This document shows, piece by piece, positions 76 to 63,931 of a DNA stretch of 64,000 nucleotides (its first letter is position 1; the number at the start of each line of letters is the position of its first letter). The notes under the pieces were generated by a model. The model was not told the origin of the DNA and did not search any database. It saw only the letters and a program-made list of their open reading frames with translations. This DNA comes from an uncultured Candidatus Saccharibacteria bacterium (GTDB taxonomy: Bacteria; Patescibacteriota; Minisyncoccia; Phycocordibacterales; UBA1006). The position numbers were made by a program, and so were the translations under genes. The DNA lies in contig CAZVLM010000001.1 of the NCBI GenBank assembly GCA_964628065.1, positions 9,357-73,356 on the forward strand. Reading direction: 5' to 3'.

Positions 76-109
76 ATGGAAATTATATCATAAACTCTCA
101 ATAAGATTA

Positions 110-684: not shown

Positions 685-686
685 TC

Positions 687-1367: not shown

Positions 1368-1594
1368 GAACCGAGTACGCCCGGGGCGTAACTAGTGATA
1401 ACTGGAACATTCATTTTCGATACTCCGTATATCAGCCATATCGTCGTTCCGATGGCGAATATCCCATAGGTTACCAGTGAGACGTTGTCTCCTGACTTAT
1501 TCTTATACATTGTATACGCCTGTGGGAAATGCCCCAGCGACATGATAACTCCGAATATTATTGTGAGTATTTCAATAAAGTTCATATTAATCAT
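1319..1594 (-). CDS. SemiSWEET / PQ-loop family small membrane transporter
   Basis: 91 aa, three TM helices, PQ motif (LGHFPQAYTMYKNKS). Confidence 0.5.
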   Translation of the reverse strand: MINMNFIEILTIIFGVIMSLGHFPQAYTMYKNKSGDNVSLVTYGIFAIGTTIWLIYGVSKMNVPVITSYAPGVLGSWLVVFLKMYYKPSKI

Positions 1595-2093: not shown

Positions 2094-2096
2094 ATA

Positions 2097-4473: not shown

Positions 4474-4517
4474 AAGTTTATTATATCAAAAAACCCGCCG
4501 ATTGGCAGGTTCTAAGG

Positions 4518-19246: not shown

Positions 19247-19288
19247 ATAATTTTGAAATAGATACTCTTAGTAAATTACCTAAGTGGA

Positions 19289-24574: not shown

Positions 24575-24690
24575 AGTTCTCAGTTCTGGCGACACCTACT
24601 CTCCCTCTTACGAAGTACCATTGGTGTAGCGGCGCTTAACGACTCTGTTCGAAATGGGAAGAGGTGTGACCACCGTACTAAATCACCAGA
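24575..24690 (-). rRNA. rrf: 5S ribosomal RNA
   Basis: The reverse complement reads ..GGTGGTCACACCTCTTCCCATTTCGAACAGAGTCGTTAAGCGCCGCTACACCAATGGTACTTCGTAAGAGGGAGAGTAGGTGTCGCCAGAAC, with helix I closing as GTTCTGGTG / CGCCAGAAC. Confidence 0.75.
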
Positions 24691-24799: not shown

Positions 24800-28205
<3,406 letters not shown>

Positions 28206-31031: not shown

Positions 31032-31038
31032 TAATTAA

Positions 31039-32574
31039 TTAAGGCAAAACTGTTATCTGCTTAACAAGTGAATTGTTCGCTTCATTCGATTCATTTACTA
31101 AATTGTATCCCCCAGTTGTGCCCATTGCATAGTCATCCACTCGAACTGTAAGTCCAAAAGTTCCACTTACTCCTAATATGTTTGGCGTCGTAGACTGATA
31201 CACGTCCACATCATACGTCTGCCCCACCGCCAGCGTAACAGGATTCATTAATTGCTGTGCGCCATAACTTACGCCATTTTTAAGGAAACTAATCTGAGTT
31301 CCGCGCGGAAGGGTTGCCGTCGCACTGCCAATATTTTTAATCGTTGCATGCACCTTAAAGTTGGTATTAGGTGTTGGTTCTTTCGTCGGGTCGATGATAA
31401 CTCGTACATGCGGAGATGAGGGGGTCCATGTGAAGTCTTCTACGATTAGGTCGGGTTTTGTGATCGAAACAGGGAAATTTGTACATGGTGCAAACTTTTG
31501 AATGCGAGTATTTCCTCCGTCCCCCACATAAACATTTCCATAACTATCTATGGCAACACTAAACGCTCCCCTGAACTGCCCGTCTGCTGAACCATACGTT
31601 CCAAATTGAGTAAGGTAAATACCATTTCCTGTAAATTTTTGGATACGTGAATTATTCCTATCCACAACATACACATTGCCGACTTGGTCTGTCGCAATAC
31701 CGAATGGTTGATTAAATTGACCATTGCCACTACCGTATGTTCCCCATTTACTTATGTATGCTCCGGAAGATGTAAATTTTTGGATACGGTTATTTCCCGT
31801 ACCAACACTATCTGCAACAAAAATATTTCCGAAGATGTCTGCGGCAATACCGAGATTTCCTTGAAACTGACCGTTTCCAGTACCGTACGTTCCCCACTTA
31901 CTTAAATAAACTCCATTTGAATTAAATTTCTGAATTCTGTAATTACCTGTATCTGATACATAAATATTTCCCATGGAATCAATTGCAATTCCCCAGGGAT
32001 TTTTAAACTGTCCATCTGCAGAACCATAAGTTCCCCACTGGGTTATATAGGTACCAGTAGAAGAAAACTTCTGAATACGATGATTAGCACTATCTACAAC
32101 GAAGATATTTCCAAAAGAGTCTACTGCAATACCTTCCGGCATGGCAAATTGACCATTTCCGGAACCACTTCCTCCAAACTGACTAAGATATGTACCTCCT
32201 GAGGAAAACTTTTGAATAAACCCCGTGGTACTGTTATCTGATACATAAACATTATTTGTTTGGTCAACAAAAACCGCACCAACGGAACCAGGGAACAATC
32301 CATTTCCAGAAAACCCAACTCCTCCCCACTTTGTAACAAACTTATACCCACTCGCCGGACATGATAACGGAGCAGTAACCACCGGCCCAGTTGGAATACC
32401 TGCCGGTGTCGGCGTGTTTTGAATAGAGGCAATCTGATTATCCGACAATTTTGTAACTGCGACAGCCCGGTATAACGAAGCGGCATTACTCCCCTGGTAA
32501 TTTTTAACTACTAAAAACGCTCCAGCCGTGATGACTGCGAGCGCAAAAACTGCGAGTGTTAGTTTCTTTTTCAT
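31039..32574 (-). CDS. Secreted NHL-repeat beta-propeller protein with C-terminal CARDB-like domain (paralog 1)
   Basis: Signal peptide, repeated ..GNIYV.D..N.RIQKF.. NHL motifs, and a C-terminal PDLIVEDFTWTPS...NTNFKVHATIKNIGSATA (CARDB-like). Confidence 0.65.
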   Translation of the reverse strand: MKKKLTLAVFALAVITAGAFLVVKNYQGSNAASLYRAVAVTKLSDNQIASIQNTPTPAGIPTGPVVTAPLSCPASGYKFVTKWGGVGFSGNGLFPGSVGAVFVDQTNNVYVSDNSTTGFIQKFSSGGTYLSQFGGSGSGNGQFAMPEGIAVDSFGNIFVVDSANHRIQKFSSTGTYITQWGTYGSADGQFKNPWGIAIDSMGNIYVSDTGNYRIQKFNSNGVYLSKWGTYGTGNGQFQGNLGIAADIFGNIFVADSVGTGNNRIQKFTSSGAYISKWGTYGSGNGQFNQPFGIATDQVGNVYVVDRNNSRIQKFTGNGIYLTQFGTYGSADGQFRGAFSVAIDSYGNVYVGDGGNTRIQKFAPCTNFPVSITKPDLIVEDFTWTPSSPHVRVIIDPTKEPTPNTNFKVHATIKNIGSATATLPRGTQISFLKNGVSYGAQQLMNPVTLAVGQTYDVDVYQSTTPNILGVSGTFGLTVRVDDYAMGTTGGYNLVNESNEANNSLVKQITVLP

Positions 32575-32609
32575 ACCTCTATCATATCCCTAAGCTTTTA
32601 TAGAGTCAA

Positions 32610-34181
32610 TTAAGGCAAAACTGTTATCTGCTTAACAAGTGAATTGTTCGCTTCATTCGATTCATTTACTAAATTGTATCCCCCAGTTGTACCCATTGCA
32701 TAGTCATCAACTCGAACTGTAAGTCCAAACGTGCCAGCTGTTCCGAGAATGTTCGGAGTCGTAGACTGGTACACATCTACATCAAACGTTTGACCCACCG
32801 GAAGCGTAACAGGATTCATCAATTGCTGCGCACCGTGACTTACTCCATTTTTAAGGAAACTTATCTGAGTTCCACGCGGAAGCGTTGCAGTCGCACTACC
32901 GATATTTTTAATCGTTGCATGCACCTTAAAGTTAGTGTTCGGGGTCGGTTCTTTTGTTGGATCAGTAATAATTCGTACGTGAGGAGATGAGGGAGTCCAT
33001 GTAAAGTCTTCTACAATTAGGTCAGGTTTAGTAATACTTAATGGAACTGAAGGGATTCGAACGGGAGTACACGGAGAAAATTTTTCAATTCGGTTATTAG
33101 CTGAATCTGAAACATATATATCTCCTTGGGGACTAACAGCAATACCTACAGGAGCTCTAAACTGACCATTACCATAACCACTACTTCCCAACTGAGCTAT
33201 ATAAGCTCCATTCTGATCAAATTTCTGGACGCGCTCTTGATAATTATCCACCACATAAATATTTCCATAAGAATCAACATCGATACCTACTGGATCCATA
33301 AATTTTCCATTTCCAACATATCCCCTGCTACCGATCTGTGAAAGATATTGCCCTGTTGAGTTAAACTTTTTAACCCCATAACCAGTAAGGCTCGTGATAT
33401 AAATGTTTCCCGCTGTATCAAGAAATACATCGTTGTCTACACCTGTTGGATTTGAAAATTGCCCGCTTGCAGAACTTCCCGTCCCAAACTGGCTTAAATA
33501 TCCTCCATTCGACTTAAACTTTTGAACACGATTATTATACCTATCAACAACATAAATATTTCCCGCTGTATCGATCGCAATACCTCCGGGGCCATTAAAT
33601 TGTCCATTATTAGCGCCAAGCGTTCCCCATTGGGTAATATAATTTCCCTGAGAATCAAATTTTTCAACTCTATTGTTACCAGTATCAACTACATAAACAT
33701 TTCCTGTCATATCAATTGCAATGCCTCCTAAAGAGTCACCTAATGCGAAATTTGGAACCTGAAATTGTCCATTCGCTGATCCTTGCGTTCCCCACTGTAA
33801 TATATATTGACCACTTGAATTAAACTTCTGAATACGATTGTTACGAGCATCATGAACATAAACATCCCCCGATGAATTAACGGCTATATATCCGGGGATA
33901 GCGAACTGGCTATTGCCTGAACCATAGACGCCCCACTGAGAAACATAATTATACCCGCTCGCCGGACATGATAACGGAGCAGTAACCACCGGCCCAGTTG
34001 GAATACCTGCCGGTGTCGGCGTGTTTTGAATAGAGGCAATCTGATTATCCGACAATTTTGTAACTGCGACAGCCCGGTATAACGAAGCGGCATTACTCCC
34101 CTGGTAATTTTTAACTACTAAAAACGCTCCAGCCGTGACGACTGCGATCGCAAAAACTGCGAGTGTTAGTTTCTTTTTCAT
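32610..34181 (-). CDS. Secreted NHL-repeat beta-propeller protein with C-terminal CARDB-like domain (paralog 2)
   Basis: Same architecture as paralog 1. The first ~78 aa and last ~140 aa are near-identical to it at the nucleotide level, while the central repeats are divergent. Confidence 0.65.
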   Translation of the reverse strand: MKKKLTLAVFAIAVVTAGAFLVVKNYQGSNAASLYRAVAVTKLSDNQIASIQNTPTPAGIPTGPVVTAPLSCPASGYNYVSQWGVYGSGNSQFAIPGYIAVNSSGDVYVHDARNNRIQKFNSSGQYILQWGTQGSANGQFQVPNFALGDSLGGIAIDMTGNVYVVDTGNNRVEKFDSQGNYITQWGTLGANNGQFNGPGGIAIDTAGNIYVVDRYNNRVQKFKSNGGYLSQFGTGSSASGQFSNPTGVDNDVFLDTAGNIYITSLTGYGVKKFNSTGQYLSQIGSRGYVGNGKFMDPVGIDVDSYGNIYVVDNYQERVQKFDQNGAYIAQLGSSGYGNGQFRAPVGIAVSPQGDIYVSDSANNRIEKFSPCTPVRIPSVPLSITKPDLIVEDFTWTPSSPHVRIITDPTKEPTPNTNFKVHATIKNIGSATATLPRGTQISFLKNGVSHGAQQLMNPVTLPVGQTFDVDVYQSTTPNILGTAGTFGLTVRVDDYAMGTTGGYNLVNESNEANNSLVKQITVLP

Positions 34182-34190
34182 ACACTTATC

Positions 34191-34820
34191 TTACTTCCTT
34201 AATTCAGGATGGTCAATCTTATTGATCAACTTCTCATGAGGATAATCAAGCATATCCCGAAGCAATTTGTCATACATGTTAAGTCGGTAAATGAATTCTT
34301 CTGTTTCGAAAACGGCGTATCGCAACTCCTTTCCGATTTCTGATTCAAGTTCCTTAATCTTTCGATCAATCGCTTTTCGTTCCAGTCGATCTCCGACAAT
34401 CATAAGATCCATTGTTCGGTCGTTGTCATGCAAGAAAATTCCAGAAACTACGAAGAGTCCAATCTTGCCAATCTTATTAAATCGAGGAAGCAAATCAGGA
34501 ATATGAGTTCCTGCAGCATCAACCAGAAGACTTCGAAGGGGTTCGCTGAGCGTAAACTCTTTTACAGCGACATATCCTGGATACTTCTTTCTCTTTGTGC
34601 TTTTTCCTTTAACTATTACTTTTGTGACAACCTTTGGCTTGATCATACCCACTTTTGCAAGCTCCAAAAGATCGCTTTTAATAAGTTTAGGCTGGACTCG
34701 TAATCGCTCCGCCAAGTCCTCAATAGATATTGCAATATCTTGATTCAATAAGAAAAACTTCATCAGTTTCACCCGAGTCATCGATCCAAACAATCTTCCT
34801 AAAATATCAAGCTGTTTCAT
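34191..34820 (-). CDS. wHTH protein with C-terminal minimal nucleotidyltransferase-like region (hypothetical regulator)
   Basis: N-terminal ..ISIEDLAERLRVQPKLIKSDLLELAKVGMI.. wHTH. C-terminal ..GLFVVSGIFLHDNDRTMDLMIVGD.. resembles the GS..D.D of minimal NTases. Confidence 0.35.
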   Translation of the reverse strand: MKQLDILGRLFGSMTRVKLMKFFLLNQDIAISIEDLAERLRVQPKLIKSDLLELAKVGMIKPKVVTKVIVKGKSTKRKKYPGYVAVKEFTLSEPLRSLLVDAAGTHIPDLLPRFNKIGKIGLFVVSGIFLHDNDRTMDLMIVGDRLERKAIDRKIKELESEIGKELRYAVFETEEFIYRLNMYDKLLRDMLDYPHEKLINKIDHPELRK

Positions 34821-37433: not shown

Positions 37434-38402
37434 TTATTGAGTCTTAACAGCCACAAGTCGCGCTCTCCGAATATATGAAGTTCCATTTGGCCACGAACCC
37501 CAAAGTAAGTCATAAGTACTTACGGTAGTAACTTGAACTTTTTTTAATGCATACCACGAACCAAACGTGCTGGTATTTGAATACACTATTCCATAAGCAA
37601 TCTCAGAAGTATCCCTCATGATTTGTGCGCGCACTCCTGCGTCAACCGTTGGATTGTATGCTTCCAAATAACCTTGGAGTAAGTAATTGCCTGGTGGAAG
37701 AGTTAACGATACGCGCACTTGAAGAGTTTGCGTAGTAATACTAGAGATTGGCTCCATTTCCGCGTAATAAACTTGAGGAATAGCATCAGCCCCTGTCGGA
37801 CCAGTAACGCCAATTGCGCCACTCAATCCAGTATTGCCTGGCAATCCTTGAGGGCCGGTTGGGCCTTGGATTCCTGCAATACCGGTCGGTCCTGTCGGAC
37901 CGACCGAGCCAGCTAATCCGTCCGTTCCGGACGGACCCGTTGCGCCAGTAATACCAGTTGCACCAGTTGGGCCTTGGGCACCCATTGGACCGATTGCACC
38001 CGTAGGTCCCACCATGCCATTACCTGAAAAAAGTGCATACGGAACACTCAGAAGTTCTGTGGTTCCCATATCCATAAAATTCCCTCCCCCATTTTGATCA
38101 AGAAATACCTGTAAATATTTAAATCCTGATCCCCAATCAACCGTTGCAAGATTGCCACTACTACCAATTTGGGTCGTCACCAATCCGAACTGGTTAGTGA
38201 TACTAGAAACAATTTCACTGTAGACAATCGTTCCTGTTGATGATGCTTCATGAATAACAAATTTCAGTGTGATCACGCGATTTGCAATAATAACACCTTG
38301 TGCATCCCGCACTACTGCTTGATAATTCATTTTTTGAGGAATCTGAGATTTTAGAAGAATATGCAACATTCCCAATAAGGCGACAAATGTAATTTTTTTC
38401 AT
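37434..38402 (-). CDS. Collagen-like triple-helix-repeat protein with globular N-terminal and C-terminal domains
   Basis: A ~75-aa run of uninterrupted G-X-Y triplets ([74 protein letters not shown]) and a signal peptide. Confidence 0.6.
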
Positions 38403-43041: not shown

Positions 43042-43924
43042 ACAATTTACGATGATTATTTTGGCCTATGCGTCGCTCAATAAAATAGGTATAGCGACCA
43101 ATAATGCAACGAATGAGAAACCAATAAATATTTTTTACACCGAATTTCCTTCTGAAAATATCTTTATTTTTAATAAGAAGTCGTGCAGTATTTTTCCATA
43201 CCTGCCATTCATACACGTGTCGCTTTTTACGAGAACCTCCCGATTGATTCACGGCTGTATTTTTCAAATGAAATGATAACGTATCTGGAATAAGCCATAG
43301 CTTAAATCCCGCATCCCATGCGCGTAAAAAGAAATCTGTTTCCTCACGGAATGCATTACCACCAAACAACGGGTCGTATTGAACCGACTTAAAGACCTCT
43401 CGCTTCATAAGCATATTCGAATGAAGGCGACTTACCTCTTCTGGTTTTTCTACAACACGTTCAAAATACCCTTCGAAAGGAATATGAGTAAAAATAGGGT
43501 CACGATCGAAATCAGCAAGCTTTTTTGCTGCTTCCATGGTCTGATCTGCATACATATTTACTCTTCGTCCAGCGATAATATCAGCACCATGCTCTTTCAT
43601 TTTTTCAAGCAATATCTTGAAATGATTTTCAGGAAGCAGTACATCATCTTCTCCCATAAAAATATACTCTGCGGATGACAGACTGATACCAACATTTCGA
43701 ATATTAGGAAGCGTCGACTTTTCAGTCATACGGTGGTAAATAATTTGTCCTGGGTGAAGTCGAGATAGCTCATTCACATACTCTGTGGTGTTATCCGTAC
43801 TACAATCGTCAACAAAAATGATCTTCCCTACACCCTCTTGGGAGAAATAAGAATCCATTACCTTGGTTAAGGCTTTGGCTCGGTTATACGTGGGCATTAC
43901 CACATCAATAAGGCCTTGTTTCAT
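43028..43924 (-). CDS. Glycosyltransferase family 2
   Basis: VVMPTYNRAKAL...IIFVDDCSTDNT..FMGEDDVLLP gives the GT-A DxD signature. Confidence 0.7.
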   Translation of the reverse strand: MKQGLIDVVMPTYNRAKALTKVMDSYFSQEGVGKIIFVDDCSTDNTTEYVNELSRLHPGQIIYHRMTEKSTLPNIRNVGISLSSAEYIFMGEDDVLLPENHFKILLEKMKEHGADIIAGRRVNMYADQTMEAAKKLADFDRDPIFTHIPFEGYFERVVEKPEEVSRLHSNMLMKREVFKSVQYDPLFGGNAFREETDFFLRAWDAGFKLWLIPDTLSFHLKNTAVNQSGGSRKKRHVYEWQVWKNTARLLIKNKDIFRRKFGVKNIYWFLIRCIIGRYTYFIERRIGQNNHRKLYAKA

Positions 43925-43964
43925 AGGCTTATTATATCAGAAAATATGATAAGCTGTACTTACT

Positions 43965-48988: not shown

Positions 48989-51061
48989 TTACTGCTGATT
49001 TGGAACAAGGTCTTCTTTGCTTACATTTGTCTGAAGTCCTTTTACGGCTTCTTCGAATGACTTTTGGTCTCCCGCAAGTTTAGCTAGTTCCATAAGAGCG
49101 GTATATGATTCCGGGATTTTCGGATTGATGGCAAGAGCCTGCTTAAAGACTGCTTTTGCCTCATCAAATTTTCCTTCATACGCATATGCCTGTCCCAGGA
49201 TCCAATATCCTTGAGGATTTGTTGGAGAAAGTTTAATAGCAAGATTTCCTCCATCAATCATCATTTTTAGACTTTTTTCATCAAGGGCATTTAAAAGCGC
49301 AATTTTAACACTTCCCAATCGCCCGTATGCAATAGCGCCCTGTGCACTTACTGGATACTTATCAAAACTGATTTCGAGCGCGCGGGCAAGCGAATCAACA
49401 TCTTTCATAACAAGCACCTGAGAATCCTTACTGCTCGCAAGTACTTCGTTCAGGTGACCAAGATAGTTCTGGGTATACACATCAGCTCGTTGTGCAAGAG
49501 TAACTCCCGATCCGTAAGGCGATGCCTTTTCTGATATCTCATAGCTTCCAGCACGAATATTCAATGGCGCGTACATCTCTACTAGGATTCGCTTCAGTTT
49601 CACTATCTCTGGGATTGTTGTTGCGAAAGCAATGACCATAATTGCAACTCCTACGGCAATCATTCCATATCGTCTCACTGGCTTGTCAGTCTCATTATTC
49701 GATACTATCAACTGCTTTACCTCCTCTAATCCTAAGAGTGCAAGTAGTACAAAGAATAATAAGAAACTAATATTTACATCAAACAGAATAAAGTTATTTA
49801 CTAAGTACGCAAGGAGCATTCCTGAAAACGCTGCAACAACATACTTATTTTCTTCGTTTTTTGCCTTCTTTACCAATACCCAAATTGTAGCTCCAATTAA
49901 GAATACGTACGCCGCTAGTCCGAGAATTCCCTGTGTGGCAAGCATTTCGAGATAAGCATTGTGCGGTTTATCTGCCCACAATTCACGCTTGTAGGTATTT
50001 CGCATGAAGTCAGAGTTGAAATACCGTTCATTGGCATATCGGAATGTTTCAGGTCCAGTTCCCAAAATTGGATGCGCTTTTATCGAAGTAAGTGCCACAT
50101 TCCAATACAAGAATCGCGTGCCCGATGCCTTCTCTACAAAGGTGTTATGAATAGCATTGTTTGGAATACACACCAATAATACAACGACTGCAGTAATAGT
50201 AATGATTCCTGTTGCAAGCGTTTTTCCAATCCATTTAATACTGTCTTTTTTATTAAATGACAAGTAAATACCTGCAGATAGAACGAGACCGATGATGAGC
50301 GAGAATACTGCTCCTCGTGCGTCACCAATAATACTAATGAATCCGTTCCAATTCCCCTTCAGCATTCCGTATCCGAAAATAACTGGGTTGAAAATAGATA
50401 AAAATCCCATGATTGCAATTAATATCTTTTTCCATCGAATGTTTGTTGTGAAGAACAAGTAAGCGATTACAAAGAAGCTCATCATCAAATAGGTTCCTGC
50501 AAACGAAGAATTTCCCGTAAGTCCTCCTCCGTATGAAATATTTGAAAGAAAAGGTGCTTTAATAATATTAAATCCTGTGAATCCTAACATTGTAGAAATC
50601 GCGATGATTGAACTTCCTGCAGCAATGGGATAGAGAATCGCTTTTCGTATTGTCTTAGTGTGATACGCAAGAAGCACTGACATGATCGCGCCTAATGCCG
50701 TAATGGTTACGAAAAATGTTCCGGTTCCGCGCTCCAGGTGTCCAAACCAAGAAATAGTTCCATCTACTCCGAAAATGGTAGCAAGGATCATCACCACAAT
50801 CGTTGCCCCTATTCCCCAGGCAATTTTCGATTTGGCATACGACTTGAATGACTGCCACGGAATAGCAATGAGGCCCAGAAGTATTACCAACGAAAACCCT
50901 AACTGAATAATTATAGATTTTGAGTTAGCATAGTTATAAGAAAGTTTCGGAAACACCATCACTGATCCGAAGAAGATCGTTATCGCAATAAGCCACGGTG
51001 CCATCTTCAAAGCAATGGCCTGTAATTTTTCTATGGTTTTCATATGGGGGTATTCTAGCAT
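48989..51061 (-). CDS. Large polytopic membrane protein (O-antigen-ligase-like core) with C-terminal TPR repeats
   Basis: 690 aa with ~12 TM helices, a ..GDARGAVFSLIIGLVL.. motif and a C-terminal TPR (..GYWILGQAYAYEGKFDEAKAVFKQALAINPK..). Confidence 0.5.
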   Translation of the reverse strand: MLEYPHMKTIEKLQAIALKMAPWLIAITIFFGSVMVFPKLSYNYANSKSIIIQLGFSLVILLGLIAIPWQSFKSYAKSKIAWGIGATIVVMILATIFGVDGTISWFGHLERGTGTFFVTITALGAIMSVLLAYHTKTIRKAILYPIAAGSSIIAISTMLGFTGFNIIKAPFLSNISYGGGLTGNSSFAGTYLMMSFFVIAYLFFTTNIRWKKILIAIMGFLSIFNPVIFGYGMLKGNWNGFISIIGDARGAVFSLIIGLVLSAGIYLSFNKKDSIKWIGKTLATGIITITAVVVLLVCIPNNAIHNTFVEKASGTRFLYWNVALTSIKAHPILGTGPETFRYANERYFNSDFMRNTYKRELWADKPHNAYLEMLATQGILGLAAYVFLIGATIWVLVKKAKNEENKYVVAAFSGMLLAYLVNNFILFDVNISFLLFFVLLALLGLEEVKQLIVSNNETDKPVRRYGMIAVGVAIMVIAFATTIPEIVKLKRILVEMYAPLNIRAGSYEISEKASPYGSGVTLAQRADVYTQNYLGHLNEVLASSKDSQVLVMKDVDSLARALEISFDKYPVSAQGAIAYGRLGSVKIALLNALDEKSLKMMIDGGNLAIKLSPTNPQGYWILGQAYAYEGKFDEAKAVFKQALAINPKIPESYTALMELAKLAGDQKSFEEAVKGLQTNVSKEDLVPNQQ

Positions 51062-51069
51062 ATTTTAAA

Positions 51070-51300
51070 CCTCACCCCCAGCCCCTCTCCAACACACCCG
51101 TCACTCGCTCCGCTCGTGTACACCCTCTCTAAAAGAGAGGGTTGGCTCCGTCGAGATTATGTACCAATAGAAACTACCGCTTATCTCATAGAGTTAAGCG
51201 GTAGTTTCATTTCAAAATTGAGTCTCGATGTCTACCCTCTCTTTTAGAGAGGGACGCTCGGCGAAGCCGGCGGGGTGTGTTTGTCCGTCGGGTGAGGACA
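51070..51300. repeat. GC-rich composite palindromic element (copy E) with nested inverted repeats
   Basis: Outer IR CCTCACCC / GGGTGAGG. Inner TIR ACACACCCG.. / ..CGGGGTGTGT. Hairpins CCCTCTCTAAAAGAGAGGG, CCCTCTCTTTTAGAGAGGG and AAACTACCGCTTA..TAAGCGGTAGTTT. Confidence 0.7.
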
Positions 51301-51303
51301 AAC

Positions 51304-51330
51304 AAAAAACCGCCCGAAGGCGGTTTTTTG
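51304..51330 (-). terminator. Terminator of the S-layer-like gene (AAAAAACCGCC-CGAA-GGCGGTTTTTT)
   Basis: Perfect hairpin with U-tract immediately downstream of the gene end. Confidence 0.65.
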
Positions 51331-51360
51331 GCACATATAAGTGAGTTATTAATCCGAAGA

Positions 51361-53292
51361 TTAGTAAGCTCCCTGTGGCTGTGTTTTGAACGCGTTAGAG
51401 TTCAATCCAGCTGTGTATGTGTTCCATGATCCTGTGTATGCTGTTGCATCAGATGCAGACCAGTTAACGTTGATCAATGTAGCTCGAGTAGTGATAGCAC
51501 TTGCTGGCTGGTATGTAACTACCAACTGGAAGTTCTTTGTCTGTCCTACTGGAACCTGGAAGTTTCCATTAGCTGTTGTAATTGTGTCGTTTCCTGTGTA
51601 GTAAACAGTTCCTGATCCTGCTGCTGCACATGCTGTTGTAGCATCGATGCAGAACTGGATAGCCTGAGCTGCTGAAGCTGTTGTAGCAGCTGCTGCAACT
51701 GTAGGAACGTATGCTGTAGATCCGAACGCAGTTACTGAGAATGGAATTGTGTATGTAACGAATGTATGTGTGTTAGCTCCTCCTGGATTACCTACGTTTG
51801 TTGTAGCCATTCCTGTAGAAGAAACACTAATACCATTTACGTATACATATACCTTGCTTCCTGTTGTAGAACCAGTCAAGTATGTAGATCCTGAAAGCAC
51901 GTTGCTTCCTGAATCGTAAGCCTGGATGTTAGAAACATCTCCTGAGGCAACACTTACCTGAGCGTATTCACCTGCTGGGAAGTTTGCAGATCCTACAGTG
52001 TTGAAGTCACCCTTGATTGTAAGAGTTGTTGTTGTTCCTGTAGCAACATTCAAGTTCAAGTTCTGGAACGTAATTGTCTGAGAACCGTATCCTGAAGCTA
52101 CTGCCTGAGAATCAAGCTGTACTCCTGATGCGTCGTACAATCGAAGTGTGTTTACAACAGCACTTGGAACTGTAGCTGAAGCACCAACTGTCAATGTTAC
52201 AGGAAGTCGTCGAACGTTAATTGTAGATCCCTGTGCATTTAGGTCAATCTTAGCCAACTGTACTCCGTTTGTATTAGCTGATGCGCTACCAGAAACTACT
52301 GAGTCGTTAGAATCAGAAAGGTTCTTTGTAACTGTCAACTTGATGCTCTGAGCTGAAGCTGCAGAAGCAAAACTGAAGTATGTGTTAGAAGATGAGTAAG
52401 TTGTTCCAGACAATGGAACGTTTCCGAAGATGTTAGAAGGTGTGTATGTAAACACTCCTGTTGCATCTGAGTATCGGATAGATGTTACATCAAGTCCCCA
52501 AACATCTCCAGACATGTTGTTAGAATCGATTACAGGAAGTGCTGTAACTGAGATAACAATGTTGTTTGTAGAGTTAGCAGTAAGCTGAGCTCCTGAAACT
52601 GGAACGTATGCAGAGTAAACTGAGTTGTACTGTGCGAACTGTCCAGCGTCAAGTGATCCAACCTTTACTCCGTTTAGCCAAACTCCAACGTTTGAAGCGT
52701 ACTTTGTGAACTGGTAATCAGTTCCTGATCCAAAGTTGTAGAATGAAAGGTTCAACCCTGTAAGCTGAGCTGCTCCACCTGCACCTGTAACCATTCGAAT
52801 GTTAGCAATTGGTTTGTCAACCTGACCAACACCTACTGATGTGTTCAAGTTTCCAGAAACTGCTGAAACATTGTTAATGCTCAAAGGAGCTGATGAATTG
52901 TTTGTTGGAACTCCAGATGGAGACAATGTGCAGTTAGATGCAAGTGTCATTCCATTTGGACATAGACCTGCTGAAGGTGTTGTTGGAACTGCAGGTGTAC
53001 CACAGTTGTTCAATGCTACCTTAGTCATGTTTCCTACTAGTCCATCAGCTGGCAATCCCTTTAGGGTCTGGAAAGCCTTAGCTGCTGCAACTGACATAGA
53101 ACCGAAGTTCCCGTCAACTACTAGATTTGCACCGTTGCAAGCGTTCAAAGCTGCCTGAACATTTCGTGCGTATGGTCCCATTGATCCCTTCTTGATCGTT
53201 GTCGATCCGAAATCAAATGTTGCTGCTGAAGCTGAAACTGTAACCGCCATAGCGATTGCAAATGCAGCGACTGCGATAAATTTCTTAATCAT
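51361..53292 (-). CDS. Abundant secreted surface protein (S-layer-like). N-terminal peptidoglycan-binding (PG_binding_1-like) domain followed by a long Ser/Thr/Ala/Gly/Val/Asn-rich beta-rich region.
   Basis: Signal peptide. ..ARNVQAALNACNGANLVVDGNFGSMSVAAAKAFQTLKGLPADGLVGNMT.. matches the PG-binding pattern. Codon usage is strongly biased (GCT/GTT/TCT/ACT/GGA/AAC/TAC), unlike neighbouring genes. The 5' UTR is 667 nt. Confidence 0.55.
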   Translation of the reverse strand: MIKKFIAVAAFAIAMAVTVSASAATFDFGSTTIKKGSMGPYARNVQAALNACNGANLVVDGNFGSMSVAAAKAFQTLKGLPADGLVGNMTKVALNNCGTPAVPTTPSAGLCPNGMTLASNCTLSPSGVPTNNSSAPLSINNVSAVSGNLNTSVGVGQVDKPIANIRMVTGAGGAAQLTGLNLSFYNFGSGTDYQFTKYASNVGVWLNGVKVGSLDAGQFAQYNSVYSAYVPVSGAQLTANSTNNIVISVTALPVIDSNNMSGDVWGLDVTSIRYSDATGVFTYTPSNIFGNVPLSGTTYSSSNTYFSFASAASAQSIKLTVTKNLSDSNDSVVSGSASANTNGVQLAKIDLNAQGSTINVRRLPVTLTVGASATVPSAVVNTLRLYDASGVQLDSQAVASGYGSQTITFQNLNLNVATGTTTTLTIKGDFNTVGSANFPAGEYAQVSVASGDVSNIQAYDSGSNVLSGSTYLTGSTTGSKVYVYVNGISVSSTGMATTNVGNPGGANTHTFVTYTIPFSVTAFGSTAYVPTVAAAATTASAAQAIQFCIDATTACAAAGSGTVYYTGNDTITTANGNFQVPVGQTKNFQLVVTYQPASAITTRATLINVNWSASDATAYTGSWNTYTAGLNSNAFKTQPQGAY

Positions 53293-53483
53293 AATTAAAA
53301 TTAATTTTAATCATCCTTCCTTATTAAGGGGAAAGAAGTCGTACACGATTCAACGTCGACTTATTAGTGTTGAATCATATGTGTACTATTTTATATTTCT
53401 ATGTTTTGAGACCCACCACTATTATTTGCATAATACTGATCGATAACACAGAAACATTGTGAAGTGTATCTAACCCGTCGGTT

Positions 53484-53600
53484 AGAACACATCACAAGAA
53501 CACACCCGCCCGCTTCGCGAGGCACCCTCTCTAAAAGAGAGGGTAGACCATCGAGATTTTTTTCAGGAAGGAACATTCTTGTGATGTGTTCTTTTCTGAC
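53484..53600. repeat. GC-rich palindromic half-element (copy F) bracketed by a 16-bp inverted repeat
   Basis: ACACACCCGCCCGCTTCGCGAGGCACCCTCTCTAAAAGAGAGGG, flanked by GAACACATCACAAGAA ... TTCTTGTGATGTGTTC. Confidence 0.6.
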
Positions 53601-53959: not shown

Positions 53960-54817
53960 CTAGTTTTTTGAAATCTGATAGGTTGTCCATCTCTTGTTCC
54001 CCTCTTTCCTGACCACATTCATTTCAACTAATGTATTCACTTCTCGTTGGAGGGTCTTATCACTGCAATCGGTCACCATCGACTTGATATCTGCCAACGT
54101 ACAAACTCCTTTCGATTTAATGACATTTAGAATTTCCTGCTTTCTATCGAGCTTATCACTTATTTTTAAAGGTGATTTTATGGTGTCTTTTTGAAATGTC
54201 GTTTTAATTTTAGATATATCTTTTGATATGTCGTTTTGATGTAATAATGTCGTTTTGATGTCGTTTTGATGTCGTTTTGATTGATACCGAGCAACCACTT
54301 CATCAAAGGCGGTGTCGCGCATGATATCTCCGGAAATTAATGGTTGAGACATGGGCACCGATGAAACGATAAATGCTTGTTCTTGCGTGGCTAATTTTGA
54401 TGCTTCGTCAGAAAATATATCTACCAACTTTGTCAATTCGTTTACAATGATATCGGCGTTCATTTGTGATATGTGGTGTGAAATTGATCCGATATGAACC
54501 AGTGATATCACTTGATCAAGTCGTATTGAAACACGTGTTAACGAACCTCGAGAAACACCCTCTTTTGATGTTAATAACCCATACGCGGTTGTGAGTAACT
54601 CCAGCGAATCTTTCCGCAATGACTCTGTAAGGGCTAATGATTTATCCATCACGTCTGTAACCAGATAAATGGCCGCCACAATTTTCTCGATCTTTTTAAC
54701 GGATACAAAGAGCGTCTTTTCTAACGGATTAACGAATAAACCATATAAAATATGAGATTTATTAGAAATGTCGTTTTGATTATTCGCATGTCCTTTTGTA
54801 ATGTCGTTTTGATTCAT
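53960..54817 (-). CDS. Hypothetical DNA-binding protein with C-terminal winged HTH and QNDI peptide repeats. Its gene carries iterated 11-13-bp DNA motifs.
   Basis: C-terminal ..VCTLADIKSMVTDCSDKTLQREVNTLVEMNVVRKEGNKRWTTY.. is wHTH-like. HQNDI repeats are encoded by ATGTCGTTTTG repeats. Confidence 0.45.
   Translation of the reverse strand: MNQNDITKGHANNQNDISNKSHILYGLFVNPLEKTLFVSVKKIEKIVAAIYLVTDVMDKSLALTESLRKDSLELLTTAYGLLTSKEGVSRGSLTRVSIRLDQVISLVHIGSISHHISQMNADIIVNELTKLVDIFSDEASKLATQEQAFIVSSVPMSQPLISGDIMRDTAFDEVVARYQSKRHQNDIKTTLLHQNDISKDISKIKTTFQKDTIKSPLKISDKLDRKQEILNVIKSKGVCTLADIKSMVTDCSDKTLQREVNTLVEMNVVRKEGNKRWTTYQISKN
54196..54281. repeat. Iteron-like direct repeats of ATGTCGTTTTG(AT): 5 copies, including 3 perfect tandem 11-mers at 54247..54279
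   Basis: Copies at 54196, 54228, 54247, 54258 and 54269, read directly from the sequence. Confidence 0.6.
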
Positions 54818-54844: not shown

Positions 54845-54886
54845 CTATAAACGACACTATAAACTTAAAATGTCTTTTATGCAATG

Positions 54887-55013
54887 CCCTCATCCGCCCT
54901 TCGGGCACCTTCTCCCTTTGGGAGAAGGCTACACTTTCGACTTCAGTTGGCACCAATAAAAATGTCTGCCCCTCTCCCTTTGGGAGAGGGTGCCCGAAGG
55001 GCGGGAGAGGGTT
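54887..55013. repeat. GC-rich palindromic mini-element (copy G) immediately upstream of ftsK
   Basis: TIRs CCGCCCTTCGGGCACC / GGTGCCCGAAGGGCGG. Internal hairpins CTTCTCCCTTTGGGAGAAGG and CCCTCTCCCTTTGGGAGAGGG. Confidence 0.65.
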
Positions 55014-55051: not shown

Positions 55052-57313
55052 ATGGCAAAAAAAGATCTGAAACAAAAGAAAAATTCTGTTGAAAAAGCTC
55101 CAGAGGAATCTAGCAATCCTCGTATTAAGCGATCTATTATCGCGATCATTTTACTTGCGATTACGGTAGTTATTATCCTCGGAGCCTTTGATGCGGCAGG
55201 TATTGCCGGTCATTTTATCTATCATTCGGTGCTTAAATTTTTGGTAGGATTTGGTGTTATCTTAGTGCCTATCTTCCTTGTCGTTTATGCGGTAAACCTT
55301 CTTAAGAACCAGCCTCACGAGTGGTCATGGGTTGAGTATGTTAGCTCTTCCCTTTTGATGATTTCCATCCTTGGTTTCATCCAAATTATTTCTCCAGGAA
55401 TTAAAGGCGGTGGCGTTATTGGGTACGGCATAGGAACCGTTATGACGAAGATTTTTGATGTCTATGCCGGCGCAACAATATTAGGTGCCGTTGCACTTAT
55501 TTCGACATTGGTACTTATTGATGAGGAATTAAGAATGCCTGCGTTCCTTAAAAATATGTTTTCTAAGTCTTCAAAAGAAGAGTCATTTGTTGATGAAGAT
55601 TTTGTACTCACAAAAGCAGATTTGAATGAATTACCACCAGCTCCAATAGCGGACCCTCTCCTTGCAGGAGAGGGTGGACGGCGCCAGCCGCCGGGTGAGG
55701 TTGTGAAAGCTGAAGTACCCGAAGAACCTCGGATTGCTAAAAAAGAAAAAGTTGAGGACGAGTTCATTACTGCAAATGCCGTATTTTCAGAAACATATGA
55801 ATACCCTCCAACCAGCCTCCTTGGTCAGTCATCAGGCAAGCCATCCGTTGGAGACATCAAAGCGAACGCGAACTTGATCAAGCGAACCCTTTTGAACTTT
55901 GGAATTGATGTGGAAATGGATGAAGTTTCAATCGGGCCAACCGTGACTCGCTACGCTTTGAAACCAGCGGAAGGTATTAAGCTGACCCGAATTCTCGCAC
56001 TCAAATCTGACCTTGCACTCGCCCTTGCCGCCCACCCTATTCGAATCGAAGCCCCTATCCCTGGCAAGTCATTAGTAGGTATCGAAATTCCGAACAGAAC
56101 TCTTGAGAATGTAGGTCTTGGAACCCTGCTTGATGAAGACTCATTCCAGAATTCTCCTAACCGTCTTCAGGTTGCCCTTGGAAAGGGGGTGGCTGGAAAG
56201 TCTTACTTTGCAAACTTAGCAAAAATGCCGCACCTTTTGATTGCCGGAACTACAGGATCAGGAAAGTCGGTTACTATGCACAACTTAATCCTGTCGCTCT
56301 TATATAAGAACGGACCTGAAGACCTCCGGGTTATTATGATCGACCCAAAACGAGTAGAACTTACTCTTTATAATGATATCCCCCACCTTCTAACACCTGT
56401 TATTAAAGAATCAAAGAAGGCTATCCTTGCCCTTAAATGGGCCGCGAAGGAAATGGAACGACGGTATGACATTCTTGAAAATTGCTCATGCCGAGACATT
56501 CAGTCCTATCATGCAAATATCCAAGACCCCTACTATGCTAAGACCAAGAAAAAAAGTCGCGATGACGATGATACAGATACCAAGGCGCCGGAGCGAATGC
56601 CTTACATCGTAGTATTTATTGAAGAGTTGGCCGACATCATGCAGGCATATCCTCGCGAATTGGAAGCCGGTATTGTCCGACTTGCCCAAATGTCCCGAGC
56701 CGTGGGTATTCACCTCATCCTTTCAACCCAGCGACCATCCGTGAACGTTATTACCGGACTTATTAAAGCCAATATTCCATCACGATTAGCACTTCAAGTA
56801 GCCTCTCAGATTGACTCTCGAACAATTTTGGATGCGCCAGGCGCCGAATCGCTTCTTGGTAAGGGAGATATGCTCTATCAAGGTGCTGACATGTCTAAGC
56901 CTGAACGTATGCAGTGTGCAAACGTAGATGAAAACCAAGTTAAGAAAGTCGTTGCCTTTATTAAGAAGCACAACGTTTCCCTTCCTGACGAAATCGCCTT
57001 GGGCGAAGTATTGGATGATGACCGATCAATTGTTTCAGCTAATCTTGAAAGCGACGAGGACGACGAACTTTATGAAGATGCTCGAGCCTGCGTTATTGAG
57101 GCCGGCAAAGCTTCAACCAGCTATATTCAGCGAAAATTGAAGGTTGGCTACTCTCGAGCAGCGCGCCTCATCGACCTTTTGGAGGAACGCGGAGTGGTTG
57201 GTCCTGCGGACGGCGCGAAACCTAGAGAAGTACTTAGTGGTGGATCTTCTCCTGAAATTGGGTTATCCACAACCGATGTTATTGATAGATTAAACGAGGA
57301 GAGCGAGGTATAA
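55052..57313 (+). CDS. ftsK: DNA translocase FtsK (start reassigned to the ATG at 55052)
   Basis: N-terminal TM helices, Walker A GTTGSGKS, Walker B/RecA-like motor, C-terminal gamma wHTH (..YIQRKLKVGYSRAARLIDLLEERGVVGP..). The track ORF start at 54884 reads through repeat element G. Confidence 0.9.
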   Translation: MAKKDLKQKKNSVEKAPEESSNPRIKRSIIAIILLAITVVIILGAFDAAGIAGHFIYHSVLKFLVGFGVILVPIFLVVYAVNLLKNQPHEWSWVEYVSSSLLMISILGFIQIISPGIKGGGVIGYGIGTVMTKIFDVYAGATILGAVALISTLVLIDEELRMPAFLKNMFSKSSKEESFVDEDFVLTKADLNELPPAPIADPLLAGEGGRRQPPGEVVKAEVPEEPRIAKKEKVEDEFITANAVFSETYEYPPTSLLGQSSGKPSVGDIKANANLIKRTLLNFGIDVEMDEVSIGPTVTRYALKPAEGIKLTRILALKSDLALALAAHPIRIEAPIPGKSLVGIEIPNRTLENVGLGTLLDEDSFQNSPNRLQVALGKGVAGKSYFANLAKMPHLLIAGTTGSGKSVTMHNLILSLLYKNGPEDLRVIMIDPKRVELTLYNDIPHLLTPVIKESKKAILALKWAAKEMERRYDILENCSCRDIQSYHANIQDPYYAKTKKKSRDDDDTDTKAPERMPYIVVFIEELADIMQAYPRELEAGIVRLAQMSRAVGIHLILSTQRPSVNVITGLIKANIPSRLALQVASQIDSRTILDAPGAESLLGKGDMLYQGADMSKPERMQCANVDENQVKKVVAFIKKHNVSLPDEIALGEVLDDDRSIVSANLESDEDDELYEDARACVIEAGKASTSYIQRKLKVGYSRAARLIDLLEERGVVGPADGAKPREVLSGGSSPEIGLSTTDVIDRLNEESEV
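55652..55700. repeat. GC-rich palindromic mini-element (copy H), in frame within the ftsK linker region
   Basis: GGACCCTCTCCTTGCAGGAGAGGGTGGACGGCGCCAGCCGCCGGGTGAGG encodes ..DPLLAGEGGRRQPPGEV.. Confidence 0.6.
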
Positions 57314-63121: not shown

Positions 63122-63931
63122 TTAAACACTTAGATTAAAGAATTTTTGTGTATTTTTAAGGAGTTGCTGGCGCACATCTTCCTCATCCATATTTTTAAGT
63201 TCCGCAACCTTCTTCGCAACTTCTATCACCATCCATGGCTCGCACGGTTTTCCTCGATACGGTGCAGGCGCTGCAAATGGCGCATCTGTTTCTATCATGA
63301 GTGATTCAAGTGGTACTGCCTTTATCATTTCGTCATAATCTCGTGAAAAAGTAATCGGTCCATCAACGGAAACAGTAAAACCTGCGGAAACAATTGCTTC
63401 CATACATTCTTTTGATCCTGAGAAGAAATGGAAATTGGCACGCAGTGGTGCGGAATCCTCCTCTTGCCAAGAGGAGGTGCCGAGGCTCTGCGAGGCGGAG
63501 GAGTTTTCAAGAATTTTTAATGCATCATAATACGCATTATCACTCCCCTTCGATGCGCGCACATGAAGCATCAGTGGCTTGTTTACTTTCTTTGCGAGGG
63601 TAATATGCTTCTTAAAAATATCTTCTTGAATCTTTCGAGATTCGGGAGTGTCTTCATGAAAATAGTCGAGTCCGGTTTCGCCAATGGCGACTACTTTAGG
63701 ATTGAGGGCAAGTTTTTCTAGTTCACTCCAGCCACCATCCTCACCCGGTTCGCTGCGCGAACCACCCTCTCCACTATCGTGGAGAGGGTTACTGCAATAG
63801 CATGGATGGATTCCCACTGTTGCCCAGCAGGTGTCAGGATACGCCTCAGCGATCTCAACCGCTGTTTTGGAGGTCTCAAGCCCTGTTCCAACCGTGATCG
63901 TCGCCACACCCAAATCTTTCATTTTAGCCAC
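63122..63931 (-). CDS. TatD-family metal-dependent hydrolase carrying two in-frame GC-rich palindromic insertions
   Basis: ..TVGIHPCY...VVAIGETGLDY...LMLHVRAS...FHFFSGS...IETDAPF.. are TatD motifs. Extra segments SNPLHDSGEGGSRSEPGEDGGW and NSSASQSLGTSSWQEEDSAPLRA are encoded by the elements at 63737..63790 and 63448..63505. Confidence 0.8.
   Translation of the reverse strand: MAKMKDLGVATITVGTGLETSKTAVEIAEAYPDTCWATVGIHPCYCSNPLHDSGEGGSRSEPGEDGGWSELEKLALNPKVVAIGETGLDYFHEDTPESRKIQEDIFKKHITLAKKVNKPLMLHVRASKGSDNAYYDALKILENSSASQSLGTSSWQEEDSAPLRANFHFFSGSKECMEAIVSAGFTVSVDGPITFSRDYDEMIKAVPLESLMIETDAPFAAPAPYRGKPCEPWMVIEVAKKVAELKNMDEEDVRQQLLKNTQKFFNLSV
63448..63505. repeat. GC-rich palindromic mini-element (copy I1), in frame inside TatD
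   Basis: CCTCCTCTTG-CCAAGAGGAGG hairpin plus GCCGAGGCTCTGCGAGGCGGAGG. Confidence 0.6.
63737..63790. repeat. GC-rich palindromic mini-element (copy I2), in frame inside TatD
   Basis: CCTCACCC GGTTCGC-TGC-GCGAACC A CCCTCTCC-ACTATCGT-GGAGAGGG. Confidence 0.6.

Follow-up and report, generated by a model that had tools for sequence, protein, structure and literature searches.

The window, by which we mean the whole 64-kb stretch of DNA that was analyzed, belongs most probably to a genome of the Candidate Phyla Radiation (CPR)/Patescibacteria type and holds a 230-nt GC-rich palindromic element at positions 51070-51300. On the minus strand this element is preceded by a gene for a peptidoglycan (PG)-binding/S-layer-like protein (51361-53292) and followed by a gene for a Wzy-like protein (48989-51061). 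The original prediction, an earlier reading of the sequence, regarded it as a member of a MITE-like repeat family (MITE, miniature inverted-repeat transposable element). In the present analysis the element resolves into two inverted copies of a small unit around an AT-rich hairpin, the ends being capped by fragments of a second allele (GGAGAGGGG...GGGTGAGG). Each of the two units has a hairpin and a G-rich tail that mirrors the purine arm of this hairpin, and a syntenic relative has the same two genes without the 230 nt. It is very probable that the element is a triplex-motif repeat of the BoxC type and that it was inserted at this site.

Anatomy of the element and its units

The outer inverted repeat (51070-51077 CCTCACCC with 51290-51297 GGGTGAGG), the inner repeat (51091-51099 AACACACCC with 51273-51281 GGGTGTGTT) and the central hairpin at 51170-51208 (arms GAAACTACCGCTTATCTC and GAGTTAAGCGGTAGTTTC of 18 nt each, with one mismatch) were all found where the original prediction had placed them. 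The two flanking hairpins, hereafter hairpins 1 of the left and right units, are also present and are mutually complementary (100% over 20 nt), although with a stem of 8-9 bp their loops comprise 3 nt, not the 4 nt that had been claimed. A test for terminal inverted repeats detected arms of about 70 nt (51093-51162 versus 51213-51281). The 20-mer GCTCGGCGAAGCCGGCGGGG at 51256-51275 is shared, as its reverse complement, with positions 640-659, and the sites at 12.2 kb and 53.5 kb again carry the hairpin and tail modules. The copies do make up one modular GC-rich palindromic family, and no composite in the window is larger than the one at 51 kb. According to the unit alignment, the element consists from left to right of a partial unit (a purine arm and a mirror third strand without the pyrimidine arm), the inverted left unit, a TCTCGAYGG extension, the AT-rich hairpin, another extension, the right unit and a GGGTGAGG block (Table 1). 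These repeats far exceed chance expectation, the unit pattern giving 5-6 matches in the window and none in 100 shuffles. Folded as single-stranded DNA with programs that consider Watson-Crick pairs only, the element reaches -63.6 kcal/mol versus -27.3 +/- 3.4 in shuffles (z = -10.7). Its ends exceed 65% G+C over 40-nt windows, the window as a whole having about 41%.

Two other readings of parts of the element were rejected. The central hairpin (AAACTACCGCTTA) is not a repeated module. It has no second exact copy in the window, and when up to 2 mismatches are allowed the matches number 4, its own two arms included, versus 1.6 expected. Nor is the element a fragment of a known RNA, tRNA or rRNA, which would have spoken against the original prediction: no family reached the gathering score over 50950-51450, Rfam searches at gathering and E-value thresholds returned noise only (for instance terminator look-alikes and a plant miRNA model that scored 27.7 bits where the threshold is 230 bits), no rRNA family matched, and ARAGORN reported no tRNA.

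The window holds 12 units that represent five sequence alleles. They were located by listing GC-rich islands and GC-rich hairpins and then reading each; 10 of the 12 were found by one scan, and those at 108-205 and 631-684 were read by eye. A unit starts with hairpin 1, which is made of a pyrimidine arm, a loop of 3-5 nt and a purine arm (stems of 8-11 bp at 51122-51142, 51235-51253 and eight further sites), continues with a 12-22-nt spacer that usually folds as a small hairpin 2 (for example GCCCGAAGGGC, GCCACGCGAAGCGGGC, GGTTCGCGCAGCGAACC and CGCTCGGCGAAGCCGGCG), and ends with the G-rich tail, or third strand. The tail mirrors the purine arm, an A being answered by A or T, in keeping with the G*G-C, A*A-T and T*A-T triads of the class II purine motif. 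Arm and tail read AGAGAGGG / GGGTGTGT, GGAGAGGG / GGGTGAGG, GGGAGAAGG / GGATGAGGG and AAGAGGAGG / GGAGGAGTT in four alleles, and GGCGGGG / GGGGCGG in the fifth, to which the two units read by eye belong. A perfect mirror third strand was found 12-22 nt downstream, and on one strand only, of all ten purine-arm hairpins of the family (four alleles), whereas the unrelated purine-arm hairpins in the window scan had no perfect mirror strand. When the same 50 downstream nucleotides were shuffled with their composition preserved, a perfect mirror arose in 0.3-7.5% of the trials per unit. Where the arms are asymmetric the third strand is a mirror image and not a direct repeat (9/9). The covariation of the three strands holds in each of the five window alleles, which argues that the mirror strand is under constraint. 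Because the tails mirror the purine arms, the supposed terminal inverted repeats (ACACACCC/GGGTGTGT) and outer inverted repeat (CCTCACCC/GGGTGAGG) are the third strands of inverted units, each matched to its own hairpin, and not the transposon ends for which they had been taken. Units lie in both orientations relative to genes, and since single units occur alone, the unit rather than the doublet is the module.

Table 1. Positions of the units, of their parts and of adjoining features in the window.
Feature	Position (strand)	Sequence or allele	Context
Partial unit, left end of element	51070-51092 (-)	GGAGAGGGG-CTGG-GGGTGAGG (minus-strand reading)	contains CCTCACCC
Left triplex-type unit	51093-51142 (-)		inverted
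Left unit, third strand	51091-51100	GGGTGTGT(T)
Left unit, hairpin 2	51101-51121		degenerate
Left unit, hairpin 1	51122-51142	ACCCTCTCT-TTT-AGAGAGGGT; also given as CCCTCTCT-AAA-AGAGAGGG
Left 5' extension	51143-51162 (-)	ATCTCGACGGAGCCA (minus strand)	TCTCGAYGGAG motif common to units of this allele
Central AT-rich hairpin	51170-51208		39 nt, 3-nt loop; doublet spacer, unique to the 51-kb copy
Right 5' extension	51219-51233 (+)	TGAGTCTCGATGTCT
Right triplex-type unit	51234-51281 (+)
Right unit, hairpin 1	51235-51253	CCCTCTCT-TTT-AGAGAGGG
Right unit, hairpin 2	51255-51272	CGCTCGGC-GAA-GCCGGCG
Right unit, third strand	51273-51281	GGGTGTGT(T)
Extra third-strand-type block	51290-51297 (+)	GGGTGAGG	pairs with 51070-51077
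Intrinsic terminator hairpin	51303-51330		of upstream gene 51361-53292(-); element begins directly after it
Extended -10 box		TGCTAGAAT	of gene 48989-51061(-); adjoins other end of element
Unit	108-205 (+)	ACCCCGCC.../...GGCGGGGT/GGGGGCGGTGG	downstream of DUF559 pseudogene and inverted relative to it
DUF559 (PF04480) pseudogene	258-526 (-)		N-terminal 60 residues in one frame, C-terminal GIKVLRFKNE... in another; catalytic middle deleted
Unit	631-684 (-)	ACCCCGCC allele	upstream of DUF559 pseudogene, same orientation; hairpin 2 20-mer common to 51-kb element
Doublet	12196-12330	allele of 51-kb element	in frame in MutY-like gene 11849-12952(-); adds ~43 residues
Unit of doublet	12200-12247 (-)
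Unit of doublet	12281-12325 (+)
Single unit	53500-53544 (-)	allele of 51-kb element	loop of conserved long hairpin upstream of gene 51361-53292(-)
Single unit	54885-54930 (-)	CCTTCTCCC/GGGAGAAGG/GGATGAGGG	divergent promoter region upstream of FtsK
Single unit	54966-55013 (+)	CCCTCTCCC/GGGAGAGGG/GGGAGAGGG, hairpin 2 GCCCGAAGGGC	nearest to E. coli TMECO consensus
Single unit	55651-55700 (+)	peptide PLLAGEGGRRQPPGEV	in frame, FtsK linker
Single unit	63447-63503 (+)	CCTCCTCTT/AAGAGGAGG/GGAGGAGTT	in frame, antisense, within TatD gene 63122-63931(-)
Single unit	63735-63792 (-)	peptide PLHDSGEGGSRSEPGEDGG	in frame, sense, within TatD gene

Insertion of the element and units inside genes

One 746-kb contig of a relative (loci L004 and L126) is syntenic with the window, the proteins encoded being 79% (FtsK), 63% (MutY-like) and 50% (Wzy-like) identical. 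In L126 the interval from the S-layer-like to the Wzy-like gene measures 97 nt, and the terminator hairpin is followed directly by TGCTAAACT and ATG; in the window the 230-nt element separates the same terminator from the same extended -10 box. Since the terminator of the relative runs directly into the -10 box, the 230 nt represent an insertion. Both units of the 54.9-kb site are also absent from the relative's divergent promoter region, and at the 53.5-kb site the relative keeps the long hairpin without the unit. The same detector found 10 units in the 64-kb window versus 1 in 35 kb of L004 and L126. As terminator and promoter are the same in the relative, which lacks the element, the latter has no evident role for its neighbors and is needed by neither gene.

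Three side observations may be added. The long hairpin at 53478-53594, upstream of the PG-binding/S-layer-like gene, is kept in L126 (3745-3800) with compensatory changes in its stems (AGAACACATCACAAGAA versus AGAACACTACGCAAAAA), the loop in the window having taken up the unit, and the hairpin may, independently of the unit, serve regulation or termination. A 21-nt motif (TTTTGAWATGTCGTTTTGAT) occurs in four copies at 54188-54240 and 54760-54813, at both ends of the open reading frame (ORF) 53960-54817, the protein of which contains repeated NQNDI peptides encoded by the AACGACAT core of the motif; the motif is also found upstream of the homologue in the relative (L126 2530-2600) and may be an operator for autoregulation. 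In addition, a conserved extended -10 box of the TGATATAAT type lies only about 7-10 nt before minus-strand ATGs at 2714-2750, 4454-4490, 15227-15247 and 43905-43941, a spacing that suggests leaderless or nearly leaderless mRNAs.

Five of the 12 units are located in frame within three genes (MutY-like, FtsK and TatD); TatD has two of them, the first antisense and the second sense by window coordinates. The reading frame is preserved, without stop codons, in every genic copy, as would be expected if they are translated, although this would not be required if they were removed from the RNA; examples of the peptides are GEGGSRSEPGEDGG and LLAGEGGRRQPPGEV. The 12.2-kb doublet is read through in frame in the MutY-like gene, and about 43 residues are missing at precisely this point from the homologues P0003 and P0004. 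Extra residues in this gap, between HHFF and (I/V)HD, are present in approximately 24 of about 120 CPR homologues (~20%). In the five lineages in which the DNA of the gap was read, the units differ in allele, in number (single or double) and in orientation (third strands outward or inward), and for this reason the insertions are independent events at one site. In the sister species L001, whose MutY-like protein is 85% identical, the left unit of the doublet is identical at 54/55 positions, compared with 74-86% identity in the coding flanks. In L001 the right unit has changed its allele, one triad being altered on all three strands (T>C, A>G, and T>G in the third strand), and has a new perfect hairpin 2 (GGCCGAAGGCC). 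This pattern reflects either selection that acts on the structure of the DNA or the copying of one unit from another. FtsK provides a second genic site that was hit more than once: the linker of the relative's gene (264-2459, minus strand) contains an antisense unit of another allele (L126 1823-1869, plus strand) at about the place where FtsK of the window has a sense unit. A search with the 44-residue peptide of the MutY doublet gave no match among 1.84 billion representative proteins, a query too short and of too low complexity to be informative. The repeated, in-frame entry of units into housekeeping genes bears on the annotation of CPR proteins and on the tolerance of reduced genomes for selfish DNA.

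The repeat family and its association with DUF559

The BoxC repeats of E. coli have been known since the 1990s (Bachellier et al. 1990s, Hoyne et al. 2000, Holder et al. 2015, PMC4666352, Kaplan et al. 2016, PMC5100583); their function, the mechanism of their spread and an associated gene have not been established. Later descriptions of BoxC call it first the PIT element and subsequently TMECO, for which the pattern is CCCTCNCCC-N3-6-GGGNGAGGG-N3-GGGNGAGGG (PMC4666352). In vitro TMECO adopts an intrastrand triplex of class II (the purine motif), a kind of triplex that does not form in RNA; it occurs singly or in inverted pairs, always intergenic in E. coli, and is associated with local genome variability (PMC4666352). 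Its function is not known, and the mobility genes sought nearby by Holder et al. 2015 were not found (PMC4666352). The TMECO stems are exact in the window unit at 54970-55011, in which only loop 2 differs, and the units at 55653-55700 and 63739-63788 nearly match the 9-nt stems of the consensus. Since loop 2 is 12-22 nt long, the window units represent an expanded-loop variant and not strict TMECO.

When the pattern CCCTCTC-N3-9-GAGAGGG-N8-26-GGGTGWG was scanned over 185,579 species genomes, at least 120 stretches were obtained, and 147 unit matches were listed. Those listed come from about 120 genomes, have the design of the window units and span Cyanobacteria, Alpha-, Beta-, Gamma- and Deltaproteobacteria, Acidobacteria, Chloroflexi, Planctomycetes, Bacteroidota, Actinobacteria, Armatimonadota, Fibrobacteres and Uhrbacteria, among others. 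The notion that the modules occur only in this window, which would have weakened the original prediction, is thereby contradicted, and so is the idea that they are peculiar to an AT-rich genome, the same architecture being found in many phyla at 35-72% G+C. The expanded-loop form is common in the phyla outside the enterobacteria among the matches listed. In these matches hairpin 2 has a perfect stem of at least 4 bp in 71% of the spacers of at least 12 nt versus 18% of shuffles drawn from all 147 spacers, not only those of at least 12 nt. The stems comprise 72 distinct sequences among 86, and the loops are GAA, GCA, GGA or GTA in 49 of the 86. C-GNA-G mini-hairpins such as d(GCGAAGC) were reportedly found by Hirao et al. 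to be exceptionally stable in DNA. The family is thus wider than the published pattern, with an expanded loop 2, many stem alleles and a reach into CPR/Patescibacteria. The literature, covered incompletely, yielded no paper describing such elements in Patescibacteria. A metagenome collection scanned with the unit pattern, verified on the window, gave no match although the JGI contig L001 matches it perfectly; the sample is evidently missing from this collection.

The DUF559 pseudogene, which by the Pfam match of its ORF fragments encoded a Vsr-like PD-(D/E)XK nuclease, is bracketed by the units at 108-205 and 631-684, inverted so that they point toward each other; a search of the protein database with the fragment gave no candidates. 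This unit/pseudogene/unit cassette occupies 76-686 of the window, between Rpe and transketolase, and in L004 the same interval (19037-19990) is taken by a 308-residue ORF, so that the relative does not offer a clean empty site for the cassette. Across phyla the neighborhood of units and DUF559 genes recurs. Among 120 listed loci selected by the motif, a DUF559 ORF is present in 4 (Caulobacter, Rhodoplanes, Rhizobiaceae and an alphaproteobacterial metagenome-assembled genome), each time abutting or overlapping a unit, and one of these loci has the order unit-DUF559-inverted unit. At viral loci selected for DUF559 from IMG/VR, units lie within about 100 nt in 19 of 25 cases and flank the gene on both sides in 15 of 25. 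The upstream third strand stops about 10 nt before the ATG at these loci, and the allele is a different one (CCTCCCCC/GGGGGAGG/GGTGGGGG, with a GNA-loop hairpin 2). Among ten DUF559 loci sampled from diverse plasmids and chromids, units lie no more than about 200 nt away in seven (Azospirillum, Deinococcus, Sinorhizobium, Synechocystis, Neisseria, Photobacterium and Klebsiella), and each of the seven has its own allele and a matching third strand. Per 50 kb, we counted 4 units in Deinococcus (two at 3 and 18 nt from DUF559), 8 in Sinorhizobium (three within 112 nt) and 32 in Photobacterium, where an array of 15 units begins 60 nt after the gene. The sole DUF559 gene of E. coli K-12, ycjD, has a hairpin-1-like end, and the 50 kb around it contain no unit other than a TMECO located 168 nt downstream.

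Some details of these loci deserve separate mention. The C-terminal residues RSPSP of YcjD are encoded by the hairpin-1-like sequence, and the ycjD-fabI spacer (L128 1800-1925) contains a second, partial copy of the ycjD 3' end between the stop codon and TMECO. The Photobacterium sp. GJ3 replicon (L170 25414-26996 and 43783-44979) carries tandem arrays of 15-17 units with two alternating alleles, a clustering that resembles bacterial interspersed mosaic elements. The Vsr/DUF559 clade includes a group I intron homing endonuclease (PMC3424549).

From this adjacency, DUF559 may be the functional partner of the units, an idea to which we give somewhat less than an even chance; in the incompletely covered literature we found no paper in which DUF559 or YcjD is connected with BoxC or with triplex repeats. 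More tentative still, by analogy, is the proposal that triplex-motif repeats and DUF559 could form a two-component system like that of repetitive extragenic palindromic (REP) elements and their REP-associated tyrosine transposases (RAYTs), extending from Proteobacteria, Deinococcus and Cyanobacteria to CPR. If true, DUF559 would recognize the folded unit and spread or maintain it, which would supply a function for DUF559 as well as a mechanism for BoxC, and in reduced CPR genomes the units would colonize essential genes, in frame and at preferred sites. The flanking of DUF559 across phyla joins two questions in a single hypothesis, namely what moves BoxC and what is the role of the common DUF559 proteins annotated as 'endonuclease domain-containing'.

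Some other features of the window may be listed here. The 23S rRNA gene (24826-28189, minus strand) contains a group I intron (25122-25338; Rfam RF00028, 57 bits) and is followed by the 5S gene (24584-24690), an arrangement called typical of CPR genomes. Proteins of the window matched relatives in the 'Patescibacteria group', and a CPR-type bacterium is accordingly the most likely host. Two adjacent paralogues of about 1.5 kb (31037-34193; 511 and 523 residues) share stretches of 260-300 nt with 89-95% identity, and the ORF 37434-38402 (minus strand) has a GC-rich stretch at 37850-38010 with short perfect palindromes.

Interpretation and comparison with known systems

We favor, with a probability of roughly 70%, the view that the units are non-autonomous repeats defined by their structure, and that they are selfish or maintained at the level of DNA. 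Both the 'selfish spread' and the 'structural role' of the original prediction stay viable. The units would fold when DNA becomes single-stranded in replication, repair or transcription, giving the two hairpins and a third strand that would fold back to lie on hairpin 1 as an antiparallel purine-motif triplex. A DUF559 nuclease might recognize the folded unit and nick nearby, leading to copying to new sites or to conversion between copies, by which units would spread or be homogenized within a genome. Selection would leave the harmless insertions, in intergenic DNA, in hairpin loops, and in protein loops or linkers where they are in frame, stop-free and translated. Folding in vivo, translation of the genic copies, and mobilization or maintenance by DUF559 are the steps that we infer. 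The structure is placed at the DNA rather than the RNA level because purine-motif triplexes do not form in RNA, C-GNA-G hairpins are stable as DNA, and the units lie in both orientations.

Several points weigh against this view. Holder et al. saw no protection by a triplex in vivo, and double-stranded oligonucleotides formed duplex only (PMC4666352); folding into a triplex in cells is for this reason stated as a proposal. Instead of a triplex, the mirror repeat could point to a templating mechanism or to a protein that recognizes it, and the left unit of the 51-kb element has a degenerate hairpin 2. The recurrent insertion at the MutY site could be due to tolerance by the protein rather than to targeting. 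No direct repeat indicative of a target-site duplication is evident at the 51-kb, 53.5-kb, 54.9-kb and MutY junctions, the relatives being too diverged for a base-exact call. A defined cleavage or target motif was not identified. As regards DUF559, no intact gene was seen in the window or over about 56 kb from CPR relatives, and since the only copy here is a pseudogene, any activity that depends on it would be past or reliant on a copy elsewhere. With the detector used, no unit was found at 3 of the 10 plasmid and 6 of the 25 viral DUF559 loci, the units adopt two geometries around the gene, with third strands facing it or away from it, and units and DUF559 genes could both merely accumulate in permissive intergenic DNA.

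Other explanations account for parts of the data. Inverted arms of about 70 nt in a 230-nt element, its absence from the relative's site and the presence of several copies in the window would all suit a classical MITE, that is, a deletion derivative of an insertion sequence (IS) moved by the transposase of the latter on terminal inverted repeats. The resemblance to MITEs seen by the original prediction holds only in part. No target-site duplication is evident at the sites compared, no transposase occurs among the ORFs examined and no parent IS was found in the window. In addition, single units stand alone with many alleles, the supposed terminal repeats co-vary with the internal hairpin as mirror repeats, which is not required of ends that bind a transposase, and the architecture of the unit is found across phyla without an associated IS (PMC4666352). 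A MITE is therefore unlikely. The inverted palindromic doublets with spacer at 51 kb and 12.2 kb follow the design of REPINs (REP doublets forming hairpins; PMC3116915, PMC3337134), and the units would act, like REPs, as hairpins on single-stranded DNA. Mobilization by a RAYT, an IS200/IS605-like tyrosine transposase, is nonetheless very unlikely, given that REPs lack a third strand and that the gene flanked here and in other phyla encodes a DUF559 PD-(D/E)XK nuclease and not a Y1 transposase; the GTAG or CGTC tag (PMC3733652) does not adjoin the palindromes in the unit alignment.

A structured RNA, such as a leader, an attenuator, a small RNA or an RNA-stability element serving the Wzy-like or S-layer-like neighbors, would explain the predicted RNA fold (-143.5 kcal/mol, z = -10.4), the location between a terminator and a start codon, and the covariation of hairpin 2. 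We consider it quite improbable, as no Rfam match rises above noise, the relative has the same two genes without the element, and the units turn up in either orientation, also within ORFs and in contexts that are unrelated. Furthermore, a conserved -10 box lies downstream of the element, which leaves the element mostly outside the downstream transcript, and the mirror third strand has no rationale in RNA pairing. Kaplan et al. 2016 proposed for the E. coli copies a switch between hairpin and G-quadruplex (PMC5100583), in which the G-runs of purine arm and tail would form a quadruplex that competes with the hairpin. Four G3 runs are indeed available in GGGAGAGGG...GGGAGAGGG (54970-55011) and in the cross-phylum consensus GGGAGAGGG-N-GGGTGAGGGG, yet the element's own allele, AGAGAGGG ... 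GGGTGTGT, is a perfect mirror without four G3 runs, and AAGAGGAGG/GGAGGAGTT likewise keeps the mirror with too few of them. A quadruplex as the conserved structure was rejected for the allele of the element on this count, and as a general explanation it is very unlikely. Finally, the genic copies taken by themselves could be selected protein modules, serving as functional flexible loops, since they are always in frame and stop-free and since peptide types such as PL(L/H)xxGEGG...PGE(V/D) recur across proteins and lineages. It is extremely improbable that this holds, as the same DNA is found non-coding and antisense within genes, the peptides are of low complexity, the insertions are missing from most homologues, and palindromy and mirror symmetry of the DNA are kept, which selection on the protein would not lead one to expect. 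The structure-defined DNA repeat described above remains the reading that we prefer.

Among known systems, analogies exist at several levels. Yeast mitochondrial DNA contains GC clusters, i.e. scattered GC-rich palindromes that are sometimes located within coding regions. These clusters and the palindromic repeats of organelles resemble the window units in forming GC-rich palindromic islands in an AT-rich genome, some of them in coding regions (compare PMC7235400), whereas sequences and hosts are unrelated and the likeness is one of analogy only. MITEs such as Correia, ERIC, RUP and Nezha are also small, with inverted arms, hairpin potential and a presence/absence polymorphism; the window element differs in that neither a target-site duplication nor a parent IS was seen and in that it is built of modular units with three-strand covariation. 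The Rickettsia palindromic elements (RPEs) reportedly described by Ogata et al. 2000 are said to measure 100-150 bp and to lie in frame in conserved genes as well as between genes. They are similar in behavior only, being palindromic repeats that are in frame in conserved ORFs, where they are apparently translated, and also intergenic. RPEs lack a triplex-type mirror strand and are confined to Rickettsia, in contrast to the unit architecture of the window, which extends across phyla, and a sequence relationship is not evident. The REP/REPIN-RAYT system is closer in organization: its short GC-rich palindromic units occur singly or as inverted doublets (Nunvar 2010; Bertels and Rainey 2011, PMC3116915), inverted units flank a small single-copy gene of the nuclease type (PMC3116915, PMC3337134), the action is presumed to be on folded single-stranded DNA, and the system persists for long in lineages. 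The window units differ from it in having a mirror third strand and no GTAG/CGTC tag, and the gene that they flank is for DUF559, a putative partner of the Vsr-like nuclease type, rather than for a tyrosine transposase.

The closest relationship is that with BoxC/PIT/TMECO. Both have a C-rich arm, a loop of 3-6 nt, a complementary purine arm and then a mirroring G-rich block, and both show frequent inverted pairs, a high copy number, a presence that varies between strains, and no known function or mobility gene. The 51-kb units use an 8-nt sister allele (CCCTCTCT/AGAGAGGG/GGGTGTGT). The second loop has 3 nt (TTA or CCG) in TMECO, whereas in all window units it has 12-22 nt, usually with a GNA-triloop hairpin, and TMECO is reported to be always intergenic in E. 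coli, whereas 5 of the 12 window units lie in frame inside genes. The host also differs, being of the CPR/Patescibacteria type with 41% G+C, as does the flanking of a DUF559 gene, an association that we did not find reported in the literature searched. The kind of element is thus known, and what is new is the expanded-loop variant, the host group, the in-frame genic insertions that recur at particular sites, and the candidate partner.

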